Part shown: in pieces, positions 7,932 through 18,010 of the stretch
How positions within the stretch are numbered: position 1 is the first letter of the stretch
How the letters are laid out: every line of letters begins with the position of its first letter
NCBI GenBank assembly: GCA_038214755.1
Contig: JBBQRQ010000025.1
Coordinates: 1 to 55,280, forward strand
Reading direction: 5' to 3'
Origin: Verrucomicrobiota bacterium
Lineage (GTDB): Bacteria > Verrucomicrobiota > Verrucomicrobiia > Limisphaerales > CANJXF01
Length of the DNA stretch: 55,280 bases
Position numbers and translations under genes: made by a program
The notes under the pieces: model-generated
Seen by the model: only the letters and a program-made list of their open reading frames with translations
What the model was told of the DNA's origin: nothing
Databases searched by the model: none

Positions 7932-8917
7932 TTCCGTGCCTCCAGAAAAACTTGTTGCGCCTGCTCGAACAACGTCAGGCGGACATTTCGCACGTAAGCA
8001 GCCAAAGCGCTTGGTCCACTTTTCTTCAGCGCATTTAACTGCGCGGCAAGACGGGTTAATGGTTCCACTTCCGCCTGTGCTTTGAGCGTTTCAATTTCGA
8101 CCGCGCGTCTCGACTGAACAATTTTTTGATCGGCGCCGGCCTGCGCCAGACTGATGTCGGACGAAACCTGGTTGTAAGCCGTGTTGATGGCGGCGAGCGC
8201 CGATTCCACTTCGGGCGGCGGATCGATTCCGGTGATGAGCGAAGCGTCGAGCATCATGCCGTAGCGCGCAGGGGAAGAGCGGCATTCGGAATCCATGTGC
8301 TCATTCAGGTCGCGTAAGTTTTTTCGAATGTCATTAATCGAAATGCCAATGACCGCAGCGGAGTCGGGCGTCGGTTCTTTCCCGTCACTTCCTCTGGGCG
8401 GCACTTCAAAATTAGCAATGCGTTCTCGCAACACCGAAACAAAATACGCCATGACGTGAACGATCGGTTTTTTCACGCCAAATAAATACGCATAGAGATT
8501 GCGCTCAGAAACGCGGTAACGAATTTGCCCGGTCAAACCGGTATTCAACTGATCCTTCGTCACCGCTTCGAGAATGGTTCCGCCGTAATTGGCCGACGCA
8601 TCCTCAGGATCGCGCGCCATGTTCATTGTCTCGGTCGCGATGGAAACTTTATGAACGCGTTCCCACGGCCATTTAAAATACGGCCCGCCCGGCATGATCA
8701 CGCGAACTTGCGGATAACTGTAACGAGTCTTTTCGTCCTCGTTCAGCGCTTCCGAAACAGGATCGTCAAGCGTGGTGAGATTGGAAACCCGTTGCGCGCG
8801 CCCAAAGCTCGTCTTCACGGCGCGCTCGTTCTGATTCACCGTGTAAAACCCCGCCGCGAGATAACGAACCAAAAACCAGGCAACGAATCCGATGAAACAG
8901 CCAATCAAAATAGGCAT
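7928..8917 (-). CDS. SPFH/Band 7 domain membrane protein
   Basis: TM helix, YTVNQNERAVKTSFG, PGGPYFKWPW, TKDQL, IDPPPEV, AQAE-type tail. Confidence 0.88.
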   Translation of the reverse strand: MPILIGCFIGFVAWFLVRYLAAGFYTVNQNERAVKTSFGRAQRVSNLTTLDDPVSEALNEDEKTRYSYPQVRVIMPGGPYFKWPWERVHKVSIATETMNMARDPEDASANYGGTILEAVTKDQLNTGLTGQIRYRVSERNLYAYLFGVKKPIVHVMAYFVSVLRERIANFEVPPRGSDGKEPTPDSAAVIGISINDIRKNLRDLNEHMDSECRSSPARYGMMLDASLITGIDPPPEVESALAAINTAYNQVSSDISLAQAGADQKIVQSRRAVEIETLKAQAEVEPLTRLAAQLNALKKSGPSALAAYVRNVRLTLFEQAQQVFLEARK

Positions 8918-9033
8918 AGAAGAAATGTTTGCTCGTTGCTAACGCGAAGTGTGATTGTTGCCAAGAGGAATCGCGCGACGAAGTCACGCTGGAGGATTGG
9001 AAGGAGTGATACTTCGAGAAGACTGGGAACTCC

Positions 9034-9273
9034 TCAATCTTGGCGCGGCGGTTTGTCATTGAGGGCCATCGCTGATTCGTCGGCGCGCTGGCGTTCCCTT
9101 TCGGCCACCAGTCGGCGCAATTCTTCGGCATTGTGAACGACCGGGCCGGGGTGGGGATGTTCGGCCGCCCACTTGCGCGTGTTTTCACAGAGGCGATGGA
9201 CATCGTAGCCTGCTTCCCGCGCCAACTCATCTTTGACCCGCCAAACTTCTTCAAGAATCGGATTCGGTTTCAT
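9034..9273 (-). CDS. Small protein, probable antitoxin partner of the PIN gene
   Basis: NPILEEVWRVKDELAREAGYDV pattern; overlaps the 3' end of the PIN gene. Confidence 0.65.
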   Translation of the reverse strand: MKPNPILEEVWRVKDELAREAGYDVHRLCENTRKWAAEHPHPGPVVHNAEELRRLVAERERQRADESAMALNDKPPRQD

Positions 9274-9757
9274 ACGTGGAGTCTCCCATTAATTCCAAAG
9301 GTGTGCAAACCGTCGGCAATTCCCAGCCAAATCGTTTGGCTTCCCGTTCTAGTCGCCGGAGAATTTGCGCGTTGGCCAGATGCCGGCAGTTCCAAGTCAG
9401 CAGATAATCTGCGCGCACCATGGATGCGACCGCCAGATGGATTGCATCCGAACGCGCCGCCGCAGGTAGCGCTCCGGTTCGCAGAAACTCCGCCGCCAGC
9501 TTCTCAACTTCTGGCGTGATTGGCAGGCTTGGCAATTCAGCAAGCGCGGCCCGTCGCCGTCGAGCTTGCTCGGCATCGCCTCGTGCCGCCTCCGCTCGCG
9601 TCTCGTCCGACGTGATGCACGCGAAGCAATCCCGGCGCAGTTGCCACCAATCCCGCGTTGCTTGCTGTTGCCCAGCGATGAGCACGTCCCGGCTCGGAGT
9701 CGCCACCAGAAGGCTCACTACGCTCGTCTCAATGTAAACTGTTTCCATGCTGAACAC
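9251..9757 (-). CDS. PIN-domain (VapC-like) toxin
   Basis: VYIETSVVS, DAIHLA, DYLLTWNCRHLANA, P.VCTP.EL; start may be the ATG at 9748. Confidence 0.88.
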   Translation of the reverse strand: MFSMETVYIETSVVSLLVATPSRDVLIAGQQQATRDWWQLRRDCFACITSDETRAEAARGDAEQARRRRAALAELPSLPITPEVEKLAAEFLRTGALPAAARSDAIHLAVASMVRADYLLTWNCRHLANAQILRRLEREAKRFGWELPTVCTPLELMGDSTYETESDS

Positions 9758-9797: not shown

Positions 9798-10220
9798 TCA
9801 TGGTTGGATACTAACGCGGTAACGAATTTGCCCGGTCAAACCGGTATTCAACTGGTCCTTCGTTACGGCTTCGAGAATGGTCCCGCCGTAATTCGCCGCT
9901 GCATCCTCCGGGTCGCGCGCCATGTTCATTGTTTCCGTGGCGATGGAAACTTTGTGAACGCGTTCCCACGGCCATTTGAAATACGGCCCGCCGGGCATAA
10001 TCACGCGGACTTGCGGATAGGCGTAACGAGTTTTCTCATCCGCGTTGAGCGCTTCGGAAACAGGATCATCGAGGGTCGTGAGATTTGAAATTCTCTGAGC
10101 GCGGCCAAAGATCGTTTTCACCGCGCGTTCGTTCTGGTTGACCGTGTAAAATCCCGCCGCGAGGTAACGCACCAAAAACCAGGCGACGAATCCGATGAAA
10201 CAGCCGATCAAAATAGGCAT
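9798..10220 (-). pseudogene. Truncated diverged duplicate of the first 137 codons of the SPFH gene 7928..8917
   Basis: Colinear at offset 1303 nt (9813-10220 vs 8510-8917); 5 amino-acid differences; ends after RYRVS. Confidence 0.92.
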
Positions 10221-10416
10221 AGGAGATATTTGTTAGCCCGTTGCTAGCGCGACGCCTGACAGTTGCCAAGTGGAATCGCGTGGCCGCCTTTTCGAGAGGG
10301 AAGAAATGTAGCCGCCGACGTTTGAAGGCGGATTTGCCGCCAGACGCAAAATCTTCGACCGCAGATTGACGCTGATAAACGCTAATTTCGGATAACGCCA
10401 AAGCGTGGAGAATATC

Positions 10417-10445
10417 TTGGCGACCAAGTTTCAAATGGATAGCTT
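10417..10445 (+). promoter_or_regulatory. Putative leaderless sigma70 promoter for the DUF262 gene
   Basis: TTGGCG-17 nt-TAGCTT, 7 nt upstream of ATG 10453. Confidence 0.45.
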
Positions 10446-10452
10446 TCCTAAC

Positions 10453-12147
10453 ATGGCTAAGGCTGAAGCGTCCGTAAACGAACTTGTTGAGATGATCGAG
10501 CGCGGCGAATTACGGCTGCCCGAAATGCAGCGGCGCTTTGTCTGGAAATCCACGCGCGTCCGCGATCTTCTTGATTCCCTTTATCGTGGTTACCCGTCGG
10601 GAGCAATTCTGCTTTGGGAAACGGACGAAGAAGTAGCGCAACAAGAATTCGCTGTTTCGCAGAGCAAAAATCCCTACAAAAGCAATCGCCTGCTTCTCGA
10701 CGGTCAGCAGCGCCTTACTTCCCTTTCCGCAGTGATTCGCGGCGAGCTAGTCAAGGTCCGGGGTCGCGCGCGCCCCATGGATCTGCTTTTCAATCTGGAC
10801 CACCCCGACAAGCTCACACTTGTTGCAGAGGTTGAAGAGGAGTCCGATGACGACCAAGATTTGTTTGAAGACGAAAATGAAGCCTCAGAAGACGAGCTTC
10901 AACGCCGATTTGACCAGATGACGTTTGTGGTTTCCACGAAGAAGCTGGAACAACTACCGCACTGGGTGAAGGTGTCCGATGTGTTCAAGACTGACTCTGA
11001 CGCACCATTCCTTGAGAAGGCCGGGGTCACTGGTTTCAAAGATGCGCGCTACCAGAAATACTCGGAACGACTCGCCAAGTTACGCGGTATCAAGAAATAC
11101 ATTTACCGCATGGATATACTTGAGCGCTCGTTGCGCTACGAGGAAGTCACCGAAATCTTCGTCCGTGTCAATTCGCTCGGCACGAAACTCCGCAGTTCCG
11201 ATCTAGCTTTGGCTCAAATCACAGCCAAGTGGCGCAATTCGTTGAAAATCTTCCAAGAGTTTGACGGGAAGTGCGCGGCGGCTGGTTTCGACTTTGACTT
11301 GGGTTTGCATCTCAAGAACCTGATCGCATTCGCCACCGGCCAGTCGCGCTTTCTGACGGTGGGAAGTCTTTCGGTGAACAGACTCCAAGCAGCATGGAAG
11401 GACTCATGCGAGGGCATGGAGTTCGCCCTCAATTTTCTCAAGAGCAATTGTGGCATCGAGAGTCCCGCACTGCTCTCCTCGCCGTTTGTTCTCATCACAC
11501 TCGCCAATTTTGGCAAGAAACTGAATTACCAGCTCACGCCGACACAGGCTGACCGTCTGCGATTCTGGGTGCTCGTCGCCAATGCAAAAGGTCGCTACTC
11601 CCGTGGGTCGTCCGAAACCATCCTTGACCAAGACCTCGTGACCGTGACGCGTGGAGGAGGCCCGGACGAACTGGTTGATCGAGTGCGGCTTCAAGTTGGC
11701 CGACTCGACATCGCGCCCGAAGAATTAGAAGGCCGCAATCAGCGTAGCGCTCTTTTCAAAACGATGTTCCTCGCGTTCCGGCAAGCGGGTGCAAAAGATT
11801 GGCGTTCGCACTTGGCAATCGCACTCGATCACTCCGGGCGACAACACCGCCTCCAGTTTCACCACATCTTCCCGAAAGCAACATTGAAGCACCGCGTCAC
11901 TGATCGCGAAGCCGACGACATTGCCAATCTTGCGTTCATCGGCGGAACAACGAACCGGAAGATCAGCGACAAGCCGCCAGTCGAATATCTTCCGCCGTTG
12001 ATCACTGAGTTAGGCGAACCAGCGTTTGCCGCGCAAGCAATCCCGACCAACCGCGCACTTTTGGAGTTGGACAGCTACAAGGCATTTTTGACTGAACGGC
12101 GAAAACGCATCGCACAAATGCTGAATTCATTTCTTGGTGTCAGCTAG
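10453..12147 (+). CDS. DUF262 + C-terminal HNH-like (DUF1524) protein, GmrSD-like modification-dependent nuclease
   Basis: LPEMQRRFVW, LLLDGQQRLTS, IFVRVNSLG; C-terminal HHIFP..DIANL..TNRKISDK. Confidence 0.88.
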   Translation: MAKAEASVNELVEMIERGELRLPEMQRRFVWKSTRVRDLLDSLYRGYPSGAILLWETDEEVAQQEFAVSQSKNPYKSNRLLLDGQQRLTSLSAVIRGELVKVRGRARPMDLLFNLDHPDKLTLVAEVEEESDDDQDLFEDENEASEDELQRRFDQMTFVVSTKKLEQLPHWVKVSDVFKTDSDAPFLEKAGVTGFKDARYQKYSERLAKLRGIKKYIYRMDILERSLRYEEVTEIFVRVNSLGTKLRSSDLALAQITAKWRNSLKIFQEFDGKCAAAGFDFDLGLHLKNLIAFATGQSRFLTVGSLSVNRLQAAWKDSCEGMEFALNFLKSNCGIESPALLSSPFVLITLANFGKKLNYQLTPTQADRLRFWVLVANAKGRYSRGSSETILDQDLVTVTRGGGPDELVDRVRLQVGRLDIAPEELEGRNQRSALFKTMFLAFRQAGAKDWRSHLAIALDHSGRQHRLQFHHIFPKATLKHRVTDREADDIANLAFIGGTTNRKISDKPPVEYLPPLITELGEPAFAAQAIPTNRALLELDSYKAFLTERRKRIAQMLNSFLGVS

Positions 12148-12198
12148 TGAGCGGTCAATGAAAGTCATCCCATGAGTAAGCTCAGACAGCCGGTTTTT

Positions 12199-12305
12199 AA
12201 TTCCATCGAATTCGATGGGTTTAGCAATTGTGGCGGATTCGCCACAATTAAAAGTCGGGCATGCGAACCAACCCTGAATTTAATCCCGTCGAATTCGACG
12301 GGAAT
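12199..12305. repeat. Array of three variant 24-bp palindromes homologous to a palindrome inside the KilA-N gene
   Basis: AATTCCATCGAATTCGATGGGTTT (12199), AATTGTGGCGGATTCGCCACAATT (12226), AATCCCGTCGAATTCGACGGGAAT (12282) versus AAACCTCTCGAATTCGAGAGGTTT (12535). Confidence 0.85.
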
Positions 12306-12327
12306 AAGAAACCAACGCGACTGAAAT

Positions 12328-13170
12328 ATGAGCCAGCCCAAGAAATCCATCATCGAAGTTCAGGGCACGGCCATCGCCGTCCTGAATCAGAACGATCAGG
12401 ATTACATCTCGCTGACGGACGTCGCCCGGTATCGGGATTCGCAAGAGCCGTTTGCCATCATCAACAACTGGATGCGCAGTCGCAGCACGATTGAATTCCT
12501 TGGGCTTTGGGAAAGACTTGGCAATCCGAATTTCAAACCTCTCGAATTCGAGAGGTTTAGAAATGAGGCTGGCAGCAACTACTTCGTCCTCTCGCCTCAA
12601 CGATGGATTGAAGCCACTCAAGCCATTGGCATCACCTCAAAATCAGGCCGTTATGGCGGCACTTACGCCCACCGGGATATTGCCTTTGAGTTCGCCTCCT
12701 GGATTTCTTCCGAATTCAAGCTCTACCTCATCCGGGAATTCCAACGGCTCAAGGATGACGAAAGCCGCCGACTCTCGCTCGCGTGGAATCTCAACCGCAC
12801 GCTCTCGAAGCTGAATTATCGCATCCATACCGACGCGGTTAAGGCACACCTCATCCCCGCGATGGTTACGCCCGCGCAGGCGGCCATCACTTACGCGACC
12901 GAAGCGGATTTGCTCAATGTCGCGCTCTTTGGCCAGACCGCCCGGCATTGGCGCGACGCCAATCCCAAGCTGGAGGGCAACGTCCGCGATTACGCGAGCG
13001 TCGAGCAACTGCTGGTCCTCGCGAACATGGAAGGCATGAACGCCGAGTTCATTCACATGGGATTGCCGCAAGGCGAACGTCTCAAACGGCTCAATCAAAT
13101 CGCCATTCGCCAGATGCAGGTTCTGACTTCCTCGAATCTGAAAGCGCTGCCCGGCACGAAAGAAAAATAA
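12328..13170 (+). CDS. KilA-N domain DNA-binding protein
   Basis: DYISLTD.AR, NWMR.RSTIEFLGLWE, SPQRWIE, GRYGGTYAHRDIAFEFASW. Confidence 0.92.
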   Translation: MSQPKKSIIEVQGTAIAVLNQNDQDYISLTDVARYRDSQEPFAIINNWMRSRSTIEFLGLWERLGNPNFKPLEFERFRNEAGSNYFVLSPQRWIEATQAIGITSKSGRYGGTYAHRDIAFEFASWISSEFKLYLIREFQRLKDDESRRLSLAWNLNRTLSKLNYRIHTDAVKAHLIPAMVTPAQAAITYATEADLLNVALFGQTARHWRDANPKLEGNVRDYASVEQLLVLANMEGMNAEFIHMGLPQGERLKRLNQIAIRQMQVLTSSNLKALPGTKEK

Positions 13171-15659: not shown

Positions 15660-16085
15660 CTACTCCCCAACCTCCAACACGTCGCGGACGAACGACTCGG
15701 GTGTAATCGGCTGCGGTTTGTGGCCTGCATCGCGCAGGACGGCAAAGTGCCCATCCTCCGTAATCAGAAAATCCGCTTCGGCGGCAATGGCGCAATCGGC
15801 AAATTTATCGTCGTCCGGATCAGTGGTGATAAGCCGCCAGTGAAAGCGTGGTTCGACGTGGAGGATGGTTTCGTAAAGTTGTGCCGTCAGGTCAAAAATC
15901 TGCGCCACTCGTTCCCAGTTGACTCGGCGTGCGTAGCGGACAATGACTTCCTCATATTCGAGCCAGATGGCGGTGGAAATCGCCACATTCAACTGTCCCT
16001 CTGTAATCGCCCCTTTTAACCTCTTGTGCTGCGAACGCACCCCGAACATTTGCACGACGGCATTCGTATCGAGGACAACGGTCAT
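15660..16085 (-). CDS. PIN-family toxin
   Basis: VVLDTN, EYEEV, DPDDDKFADCA, LITEDGHF. Confidence 0.9.
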   Translation of the reverse strand: MTVVLDTNAVVQMFGVRSQHKRLKGAITEGQLNVAISTAIWLEYEEVIVRYARRVNWERVAQIFDLTAQLYETILHVEPRFHWRLITTDPDDDKFADCAIAAEADFLITEDGHFAVLRDAGHKPQPITPESFVRDVLEVGE

Positions 16086-16318
16086 GCAGCCGACCGCGCT
16101 CGAATCGCGGCCCGCGCTTCCTGAATGATTTGCGGCAGATGAGCCAACCGTCCTTGTTCCCGCAGCGTGTCGAATTCGGCATCCACCTCCGCCACGACTT
16201 GATCGAGTTCGAGGCGAAGCGCCACGCGATGCAAAATGGCGAGAGCTTCACCGTCGAGTTGATCTACTTTCGCATGTAGCGCTGGGCGGAGTTCCGAGGG
16301 TTCCAATGTCGTCGGCAT
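16082..16318 (-). CDS. Probable antitoxin coupled to the PIN toxin
   Basis: 78-aa ORF (MPTTLEP..) overlapping the PIN start by ATGA. Confidence 0.65.
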   Translation of the reverse strand: MPTTLEPSELRPALHAKVDQLDGEALAILHRVALRLELDQVVAEVDAEFDTLREQGRLAHLPQIIQEARAAIRARSAA

Positions 16319-16372
16319 GAACGCACTGTGCCATAGATCGCTCATGCCGCCAAGCCGCAAACATCTGAGGAA

Positions 16373-17463: not shown

Positions 17464-17697
17464 ATGCAAGCGACCATTGAAATTGACGCTCAATTACTTC
17501 ATGAAGCGGAAGCGGCGGCGCGGCGCAAAGGTCAGGGGCTTTCGGTCCTTGTCGAACAAGCGTTGAGAGATTCGCTTCGGACATCCCAGGAAGCGGTGCC
17601 CATCGAACTTTATGGTGAACCATTGACGGAGGAGGATATTGCTGAAAGCGCTCGTGTCGCTTTTAGCCTGTTGGACGCGGAGGAAAAAAGTGCCTGA
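17464..17697 (+). CDS. Ribbon-helix-helix-type antitoxin
   Basis: TIEID..LL.EA...A...G..LS.LVE.ALR; overlaps the downstream toxin. Confidence 0.75.
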   Translation: MQATIEIDAQLLHEAEAAARRKGQGLSVLVEQALRDSLRTSQEAVPIELYGEPLTEEDIAESARVAFSLLDAEEKSA

Positions 17698-18010
17698 ACG
17701 GGGTGAGGTTTGGCTGGTGGATTTGGGAATGGTCGAGAAAGTCCGGCCTGCTTTAATTCTAAGCGGTCCTTGCGGCCCCAATGACCGGGACATCCTATCG
17801 GTCATACCTCACACAACAACGCTTCGCGGTTCACAATATGAGATCGTCATTCCACTTCCATTTCTCAAGCCGGGAGGCTTCCTTGTGCAAAGTCCGGCAA
17901 CGGTGCCAAGTCGGCGCGCGGAAAAATTCCTTGGACGAATGACGGAAGCGCAAATTTGCCAGATTGAAGTTGGTTTGCTCCAATGGCTGAAAATTCGGCG
18001 AGACAGATAA
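17690..18010 (+). CDS. PemK/MazF-family toxin
   Basis: RGEVWLVDLG..EKVRPALILS, VIPHTT; GTG start at 17690. Confidence 0.9.
   Translation: MPERGEVWLVDLGMVEKVRPALILSGPCGPNDRDILSVIPHTTTLRGSQYEIVIPLPFLKPGGFLVQSPATVPSRRAEKFLGRMTEAQICQIEVGLLQWLKIRRDR

Follow-up and report, generated by a model that had tools for sequence, protein, structure and literature searches.

A KilA-N gene of a Verrucomicrobiota bacterium carries, in frame within its own coding sequence, a perfect 24-bp palindrome, and comparison across the family indicates that the arms of this palindrome vary together with four residues in the helix predicted to read DNA, which is encoded a short distance upstream in the same gene. The leaders of many such genes hold further palindromes of the same build, one per class and almost never of the class found in the gene itself. 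We identified the arrangement in a contig stretch of 55,280 nucleotides (the window, meaning the whole stretch of DNA analysed), where the locus comprises the following features:

10405 to 12147, + strand: GmrSD-like (HEC-05/BrxU-like) nuclease gene, upstream context only (PF03235, E 9e-29; PADLOC HEC-05, E 1.1e-47).
12172 to 12324, + strand: 50-aa leader open reading frame through units 1 and 2, ending 3 nt before the KilA-N ATG.
12199 to 12222, no strand assigned: leader unit 1, slot A, a putative non-self site of the IEFDG class (10/12 paired).
12221 to 12248, + strand: weak sigma70-like pair TTAGCA-16 nt-CACAAT (8/12) spanning units 1 and 2, a hint only.
12226 to 12249, no strand assigned: leader unit 2, slot B, a putative non-self site of the GEFA class with one core change (11/12 paired).
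12282 to 12305, no strand assigned: leader unit 3, slot C, a putative non-self site of the VEFDG class (11/12 paired).
12328 to 13170, + strand: KilA-N gene, 280 aa, PADLOC PDC-S22 (Pfam, PADLOC and structure model).
12448 to 12474, + strand: codons of helix 41-49, in which F42, A43, N46 and N47 covary with palindrome bases.
12535 to 12558, no strand assigned: in-frame perfect palindrome, residues 70-77, KPLEFERF, LEFER class, the putative own binding site.

A check of the window sequence reproduced all four 24-bp units that the initial annotation had described, with their coordinates and their translations (NSIEFDGF, NCGGFATI and NPVEFDGN in the leader, KPLEFERF in the gene). The coding copy, said there to be a perfect palindrome inside the KilA-N CDS, paired at 12 of 12 positions and was the longest perfect palindrome of the window. 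Only three centres in the window paired at 11/12 or better, every one of them within the KilA-N locus, and 20 simulations under a dinucleotide model gave a mean of 0.25 centres at 11/12 and 0 at 12/12. The left flank of unit 3 resembles the flank of the coding copy (NPEF). The leader open reading frame also exists as described and is in register with units 1 and 2 but not with unit 3; its sequence is not conserved in relatives and the frame is probably incidental. A conserved leader peptide was rejected because leader frames differ between loci, and special translational coupling because an open frame ending at the start occurs in 14 of 18 multi-unit loci and also in 30 of 48 unit-less loci. 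The promoter scan gave no + strand site, the sigma70-like pair falling under its threshold; units 1 and 2 make such a weak promoter-like pair in many leaders, not just in that of the window. There was no terminator-like + strand site between the GmrSD-like gene and the KilA-N gene, and Rfam gave no match at gathering score, its one chance-level hit (18.6 vs 33.2 bits) lying outside the units. The claimed adjacency to a GmrSD-like nuclease holds for the window, but GmrSD was absent among 49 scanned neighbour proteins of other array loci, a functional link is not supported, and the neighbour looks incidental. In five congeneric genomes the short flanks around RNase R contained no GmrSD or KilA-N similarity, and were too short for an empty site to be defined.

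We assessed the coding palindrome across the family in a set of 81 loci, made up of the window and the best 80 of 498 loci in GTDB genomes, retrieved with six search peptides of which one was biased towards the allele of the window. All 81 paired at 10/12 or better at one shared codon boundary and 66 were perfect, against at most 2 perfect per round in 2000 rounds of synonymous recoding. Mean pairing was 11.77/12 compared with 7.26 after recoding, and no other centre within the gene averaged above 5.8 pairs. Aligned in this way, as had been proposed as a check on palindromy and arm covariation, the homologues possess a symmetry beyond codon bias, which the recoding rejects as its source. The layout at codons 70-77 is a fixed frame of AA, a central CGAATTCG and TT with variable arms between, the core being intact in all 81 coding copies, and 19 peptide variants fall into six arm classes. 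Among distant plasmid and phage records, of which 8 of 44 matches were fetched, 7 had a palindrome at 10-12/12. These results indicate that having a coding palindrome is characteristic of the family and that it is the DNA sequence itself that is maintained. One Latilactobacillus homologue (L125) has lost the coding palindrome, its segment reading NTDSYTEL, and carries a VEFDG-type unit 43 bp upstream of the match, which makes it a natural test case.

The assignment of the gene product to KilA-N was confirmed (PF04383, 74.9 bits at a curated cut-off of 23.8), and the protein matched the PADLOC PDC-S22 profile over its full length (E 7.5e-134, residues 5-270). The family is very common, with at least 8000 homologues scored and a match in 21 of 101 related genomes; the viral contig scan returned no loci. 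PDC-S22 is a phage defence candidate by status only; genes of relatives are embedded in, or adjacent to, type I R-M genes (L028, L029, L038, L043, L065), and the window gene adjoins the HEC-05-like gene. In the source genome (97% complete) the search gave a single KilA-N match and no cognate protein that would read the leader sites, so that any such reader would be occasional or incoming.

In the structure model (pLDDT 95) the DNA-binding domain comprises helices 29-36, 41-49 and 52-65, the palindrome-encoded segment forms helix 71-80, and the protein also has a long helix (128-171) and a helical C-terminal domain. The model has a fold like that of the DNA-binding domain in Mbp1 (Z 7.8, rmsd 2.9, 86 aligned), a Z under 8 being middling for the tool; the top two fold matches were both Mbp1 (Z 7.8 and 7.5; Foldseek E 0.035), and a sequence search of solved structures gave nothing significant. 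The C-terminal domain had no named family in Atlas, and Foldseek matched it to no PDB entry at E 0.001, the best being DdrC (E 0.009, rmsd 17), and the unmatched domain is no evidence for a new fold. A homodimer was predicted with a score of 0.60 (best control 0.00), with runs agreeing in at least 62% of contacts and pLDDT of at least 71, through an interface of residues 53-61 and 116-145; 20 of 30 solved homodimers attained this score, as did 1 of 23 monomers. A predicted homodimer suits a symmetric site. In the available text on PCG2, an Mbp1 orthologue, helix B enters the major groove and the wing, not helix B, supplies most base contacts (PMC4333399). From the order of elements we infer that residues 41-49 are the counterpart of helix B.

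Covariation between this helix and the palindrome arms was evaluated in 146 distinct helix and segment combinations out of 217 aligned rows, with bases deduced from the encoded residues. The best-covarying column differed by arm base, position 8 pairing with F42, position 6 with A43 and N46, and position 5 with N47. Among the 146 combinations, residue 47 followed the base as N with A (111/120), D with C (8/9), H, K or R with G (6/9) and S or T with T (7/8), and residue 42 as R or K with G (31/43) and A with T (8/13). Fit was scored against the usual sets of amino acid-base chemistry. N47 fitted in 137 of 146 combinations (shuffled mean 100, max 109), F42 in 79 (mean 45, max 60) and A43 in 69 (mean 39, max 53); the fits beat all 2000 shuffles on one strand and fell below the shuffled mean on the other, with the strands chosen post hoc. 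F42 and A43 of the window gene are not classic base readers.

We also counted disjoint pairs on a tree built without the helix and the segment, using all branches of the FastTree tree. Changes in the predicted direction prevailed at 15.1:0, 17.7:0 and 9.4:0, with weaker pairings at 8.4:1.5 and 9.8:1.7, while three of four cross-controls were not significant and one was (base 6 vs residue 42, 10.6:0). Strongly supported branches alone left 2-5 independent pairs, too few for significance. Linkage contributes to this signal, helix and site being separated by ~85 bp, and the signal may alternatively reflect the helix touching the segment directly within the protein. Taken at the level of sequence, the arm bases change in step with four residues, 42, 43, 46 and 47, of the predicted reading helix. 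One reading in the initial annotation, that the palindromes are sites for a protein binding the DNA that encodes its own segment, is well supported by this covariation together with the predicted dimer, and it is likely that proteins of the family bind palindromic sites.

Leader units numbered 60 in 30 of the 81 loci (best 80 of 498 plus the window), all within 300 bp upstream of the start; upstream arrays are thus not confined to the window, and 51 of the 81 loci lacked one. The density was 60 units per 24,300 upstream bases vs 1 per 452,353 other flank bases. Arrays occurred in 18 of 37 loci titled Verrucomicrobiota and in some loci of other phyla, and a search pattern for slot B retrieved seven loci from metagenomes; in six the match immediately precedes a family gene or its remnant, and the seventh is truncated by a contig end. 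The leader of L010 contains the 5' part of an older GEFA-class gene, helix and site included, and that of L009 a decayed form of the same relic; coding-type flanks fade by ~25 bp from the units, the reading frames of the 60 units are mixed (27/20/13), and both halves match one known class in 45 of the 60, with hybrid halves in 4. These observations point to leader units beginning as remains of displaced family genes, which bears out, as to origin, the earlier idea of a record of other alleles.

Unit scaffold bases were 93-100% conserved, with a step down to 53-68% just outside the 24 bp. In nine leaders with the window's layout the units were 85, 96 and 94% identical vs 53% for a 32-bp spacer, a comparison biased in that the pattern demanded parts of each unit and four of the nine were found through unit B. 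Leader units were less symmetric than coding copies (10.8 vs 11.8 pairs), and the core was changed in 13 of 60, unit 2 of the window included. Deletion scars, put forward earlier as the case that would undo the finding, describe the units well in origin but not in their conservation. Scar origin and function are not alternatives, since conservation is much higher in the units than in the intervening DNA.

The content of the arrays was non-redundant and avoided self. No pair within an array was of the same class (0 of 44, 10.6 expected), and self half-sites in leaders numbered 3 vs 15.6 expected; the 27 units in 10 of 21 further loci, five of them pattern-found, contained no self half-site (3.3-7.7 expected). 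After 40 loci were collapsed to 31 usable combinations, the gene's own class was present in the leader of 2 of 31 vs 9.7 expected, and without the GEFA and pattern-found loci in 2 of 21 vs 7.3 expected (P 0.003), P values for self-avoidance being overstated because leaders share ancestry. In the window, a LEFER-class gene follows IEFDG, GEFA and VEFDG sites. The exceptions were L014, with a full self unit, and L012, with a near-self unit that has a core change; the L001 copy is without that change. An identical allele occurred twice in two assemblies (L003 and L006; L034 and L050) and different alleles in G052 and G062. All these bins may mix strains, and the two same-allele assemblies may argue against strict exclusion.

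Slot A is often an IEFDG/LEFER hybrid (window 12199-12222, L001, L003, L006, L026, L085, L109), is pure IEFDG at two loci where the gene is LEFER, and is without IEFDG at two loci where the gene is IEFDG. Such hybrid units could be heterodimer sites. The leader of L038 holds, 120 bp upstream of the KilA-N start and beside a GEFA unit, a palindrome of another family (ENHFSQVGKMV, 11/12), and arrays may collect sites across protein families.

The architecture is established, and by comparison of sequences it appears widespread and selected; its function we infer. On balance the evidence tips towards a self-encoded binding site within the gene combined with a selected array of non-self sites in the leader, the latter probably operators. 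A homodimer would set helix 41-49 of each subunit on one arm of a palindrome, and each allele would bind the site written in its own gene and limit its own transcription. Leaders hold remains of displaced family genes in which the palindromes alone last, a single one for each class and hardly ever that of the gene itself. These units would be kept as operators through which other family members, on mobile DNA or as paralogues, turn the gene down. Repression through the leader could act by occlusion or roadblock, a possibility that follows from the weak promoter-like pair and the missing terminator after the GmrSD-like gene. The operator model gives no account of why a self site should be harmful in the leader yet tolerated in the gene.

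If the self-encoded site is real, one stretch of DNA would be both the code for a protein part and the target of that protein, and the two would be bound to evolve together with a helix ~25 residues distant. Hundreds of natural protein-site pairs could then be read from gene sequences alone, and these would make up a recognition code, ready for use, for a DNA-binding protein that is compact and dimeric. The arrangement would also suggest a testable role for a very common, uncharacterised passenger of defence islands, and would point to competition or cross-talk among single-gene elements that are recombinase-free.

A possible but doubtful extension is a protein-read memory of self and non-self, in which the in-gene site would mark self and the leader would be a selected, inherited record of past rival alleles at the locus, used to sense or neutralise those that return. 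Such a memory would need no RNA guide, specificity being fixed by four helix residues through a reprogrammable code.

The leader units might instead be decoys, sinks of the 'orphan immunity' kind for rival family proteins and not operators, with the self site missing from the leader simply because the gene already has one. One unit of each class and self-avoidance would then follow from redundancy with no harm needed, the match to a promoter is weak, and an origin through displaced older genes mirrors the orphan immunity arrays of Vibrio as available text describes them (PMC5361080). We consider decoys unlikely, however: a single site per class makes a poor sink, the units are limited to the 300 bp upstream of the start although a decoy could sit anywhere, and any toxicity of the protein to be titrated is hypothetical.

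That the units are functionless scars is likewise improbable. Hairpins would set the ends of deletions, template switching would keep the symmetry, conversion would refresh the units and identical repeats would collapse. Besides the direct evidence of scar origin given above (coding-type flanks and the L010 and L009 relics), the 24-27 bp spacing of abutting units and the few hybrid halves fit junctions at unit borders and centres, the units form hairpins (z -3.9 to -6.0), non-redundancy and self-avoidance are also what deletion between identical repeats would yield, and template switching corrects imperfect repeats in proteobacteria according to the abstract of PMC5941160. Yet functionless scars would not be expected to hold the identity that the units keep while a spacer of equal length drops to 53%. 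Template switching restores symmetry and not identity to coding alleles, to which most units correspond in both halves, and the helix code would be left without explanation.

The allelic structure of the genes bears on the two readings that we rate lowest. A whole-protein tree without the segment still grouped by allele, and the C-terminal tree did not, with 32 class changes among 81 rows. Gene pairs 88-96% identical in the 3' half differed in allele, L001 and L012 had a leader in common and a different module, and slot A and the gene seemed reciprocal between the window or L001 on one side and L006 on the other. Each of 17 helix types in the 81-locus set went with one palindrome class, three of them with one off-class half. 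We parsed 115 of 120 close homologues, of which 108 shared the window's helix type; none of these had its leader alleles, and six carried other small variants. The earlier proposal to look for alleles with leader arms in reads of the population also turned up none: in the likely source run, positions 11900-12564 assembled without differences, in contigs only, which drop rare variants, and the runs with a small share (X2-X4) yielded relatives only. These patterns show that helix and site, the DNA-binding module, pass from gene to gene together and that the palindrome is not rewritten alone.

This exchange gives some footing to the idea that the palindromes are cis sites for mobility, hairpin-forming or dimer-bridged, which would steer insertion or module exchange and leave leader units as landing pads or by-products; the module is indeed swapped, between genes alike in their 3' halves and below a common leader, and gene contexts are very different, several lying beside a displaced DUF58 start. 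We nonetheless regard it as quite unlikely: the borders of the swaps lie outside the palindrome, given that helix and site move together, the conserved flanks are enough for ordinary homologous recombination, and leaders lack landing pads for the gene's own allele. Donor cassettes rewriting codons 70-77, another reading of the initial annotation, are highly improbable, for although the units look like codon-aligned copies with coding-type flanks and slot A appears reciprocal with the gene, helix and palindrome travel together, no homologue of the same helix type carries a leader allele, and the source-run contigs, which drop rare variants, are without variants there. Cassette-based diversification of the gene-conversion or DGR-like kind was rejected, the segment being coupled to the helix and not changing independently. 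The 13 window proteins scanned included no dedicated recombinase or reverse transcriptase. A CRISPR array was ruled out, the units differing by class and the spacers deriving from coding flanks.

The operators of Cluster A mycobacteriophages are separate from the repressor coding sequence and of self type. The leader sites of KilA-N genes are non-self, unlike these phage operators, and the same allele may occur twice in an assembly, as it did in two. The likeness to the Cluster A repressor-operator networks, in the available text of PMC6550527, lies in diverged specificities and cross-talk among related types. With the Vibrio cholerae T6SS orphan immunity arrays, again from the available text (PMC5361080), the family shares sequential displacement that leaves an array matching the alleles of other strains; those arrays keep whole immunity proteins, whereas KilA-N leaders, built by displacement (L010, L009), keep 24-bp DNA sites in mixed frames and not immunity genes, with the cognate element inside the gene. 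KilA-N/APSES proteins (Mbp1, PCG2) resemble the window protein in fold, major-groove helix and glycine-rich wing, but PCG2 reads a short fixed core mainly by its wing in the text available, while the helix of the window family varies with the site in the same gene (PMC4333399). Template-switch inverted repeats and coding palindromes likewise have arms that stay symmetric while the sequence changes, even within a CDS, and the abstracts of PMC5941160 and PMC6649704 mention neither a link to a DNA-reading helix nor arrays of other alleles. The paper on the PDC set, to which the window gene belongs by its full-length HMM match, mentions in its main text neither KilA nor palindromes, and no self site, code or leader array (bioRxiv 10.1101/2024.01.29.577857). 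By its sequence, then, the gene is a KilA-N/PDC-S22 member that appears to resemble both repressor-operator systems and orphan immunity and to belong to neither. In agreement with the initial annotation, which did not recognise a described system, we found no description of the arrangement in the literature covered, with most subscription journals outside that coverage; what appears to be new is the architecture, in which a gene contains its own putative site, linked to the helix by covariation, and also has a non-self array.

Several further observations concern the surroundings of these genes. In the window, the 5' part of an SPFH/Band 7 gene occurs twice, at 8510-8975 and 9813-10280, over 468 bp and with 87% identity. 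The duplication brackets a two-gene pair (9034-9757; no Pfam hit), which we take to be toxin-antitoxin-like, as a displaced-gene-start insertion adjoining the GmrSD-KilA-N island. Toxin-antitoxin-type pairs are also inserted between housekeeping genes at 15660-16360 (PIN) and 17464-18010 (PemK/MazF). At other loci a DUF58 gene begins 3-78 nt after the KilA-N stop (L001, L006, L011, L033, L050), and several of these have a DUF58-like start stub upstream that reads into the array, a recurrent insertion spot.

In-frame palindromes were also seen in other families. DHFVDINEMV and DHFVDITEMV are encoded at G000 C101:16394 and in the gene downstream of L061, which has a Bro-N domain and is presumably DinD; these Bro-N palindromes possibly follow the same principle in another family. 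G000 further contains two sets of scattered palindromes that have no relation to the KilA-N units, with 12 copies of a TTGCATATGCAA core (including C13:47420, C72:18029 and 18892) and 7 copies of a CTTTGCAAAG core (including C37:26894, C58:20772 and 21562, C80:20156 and 20350), all pairing at 11/12 or better and some of them paired 200-900 bp apart.
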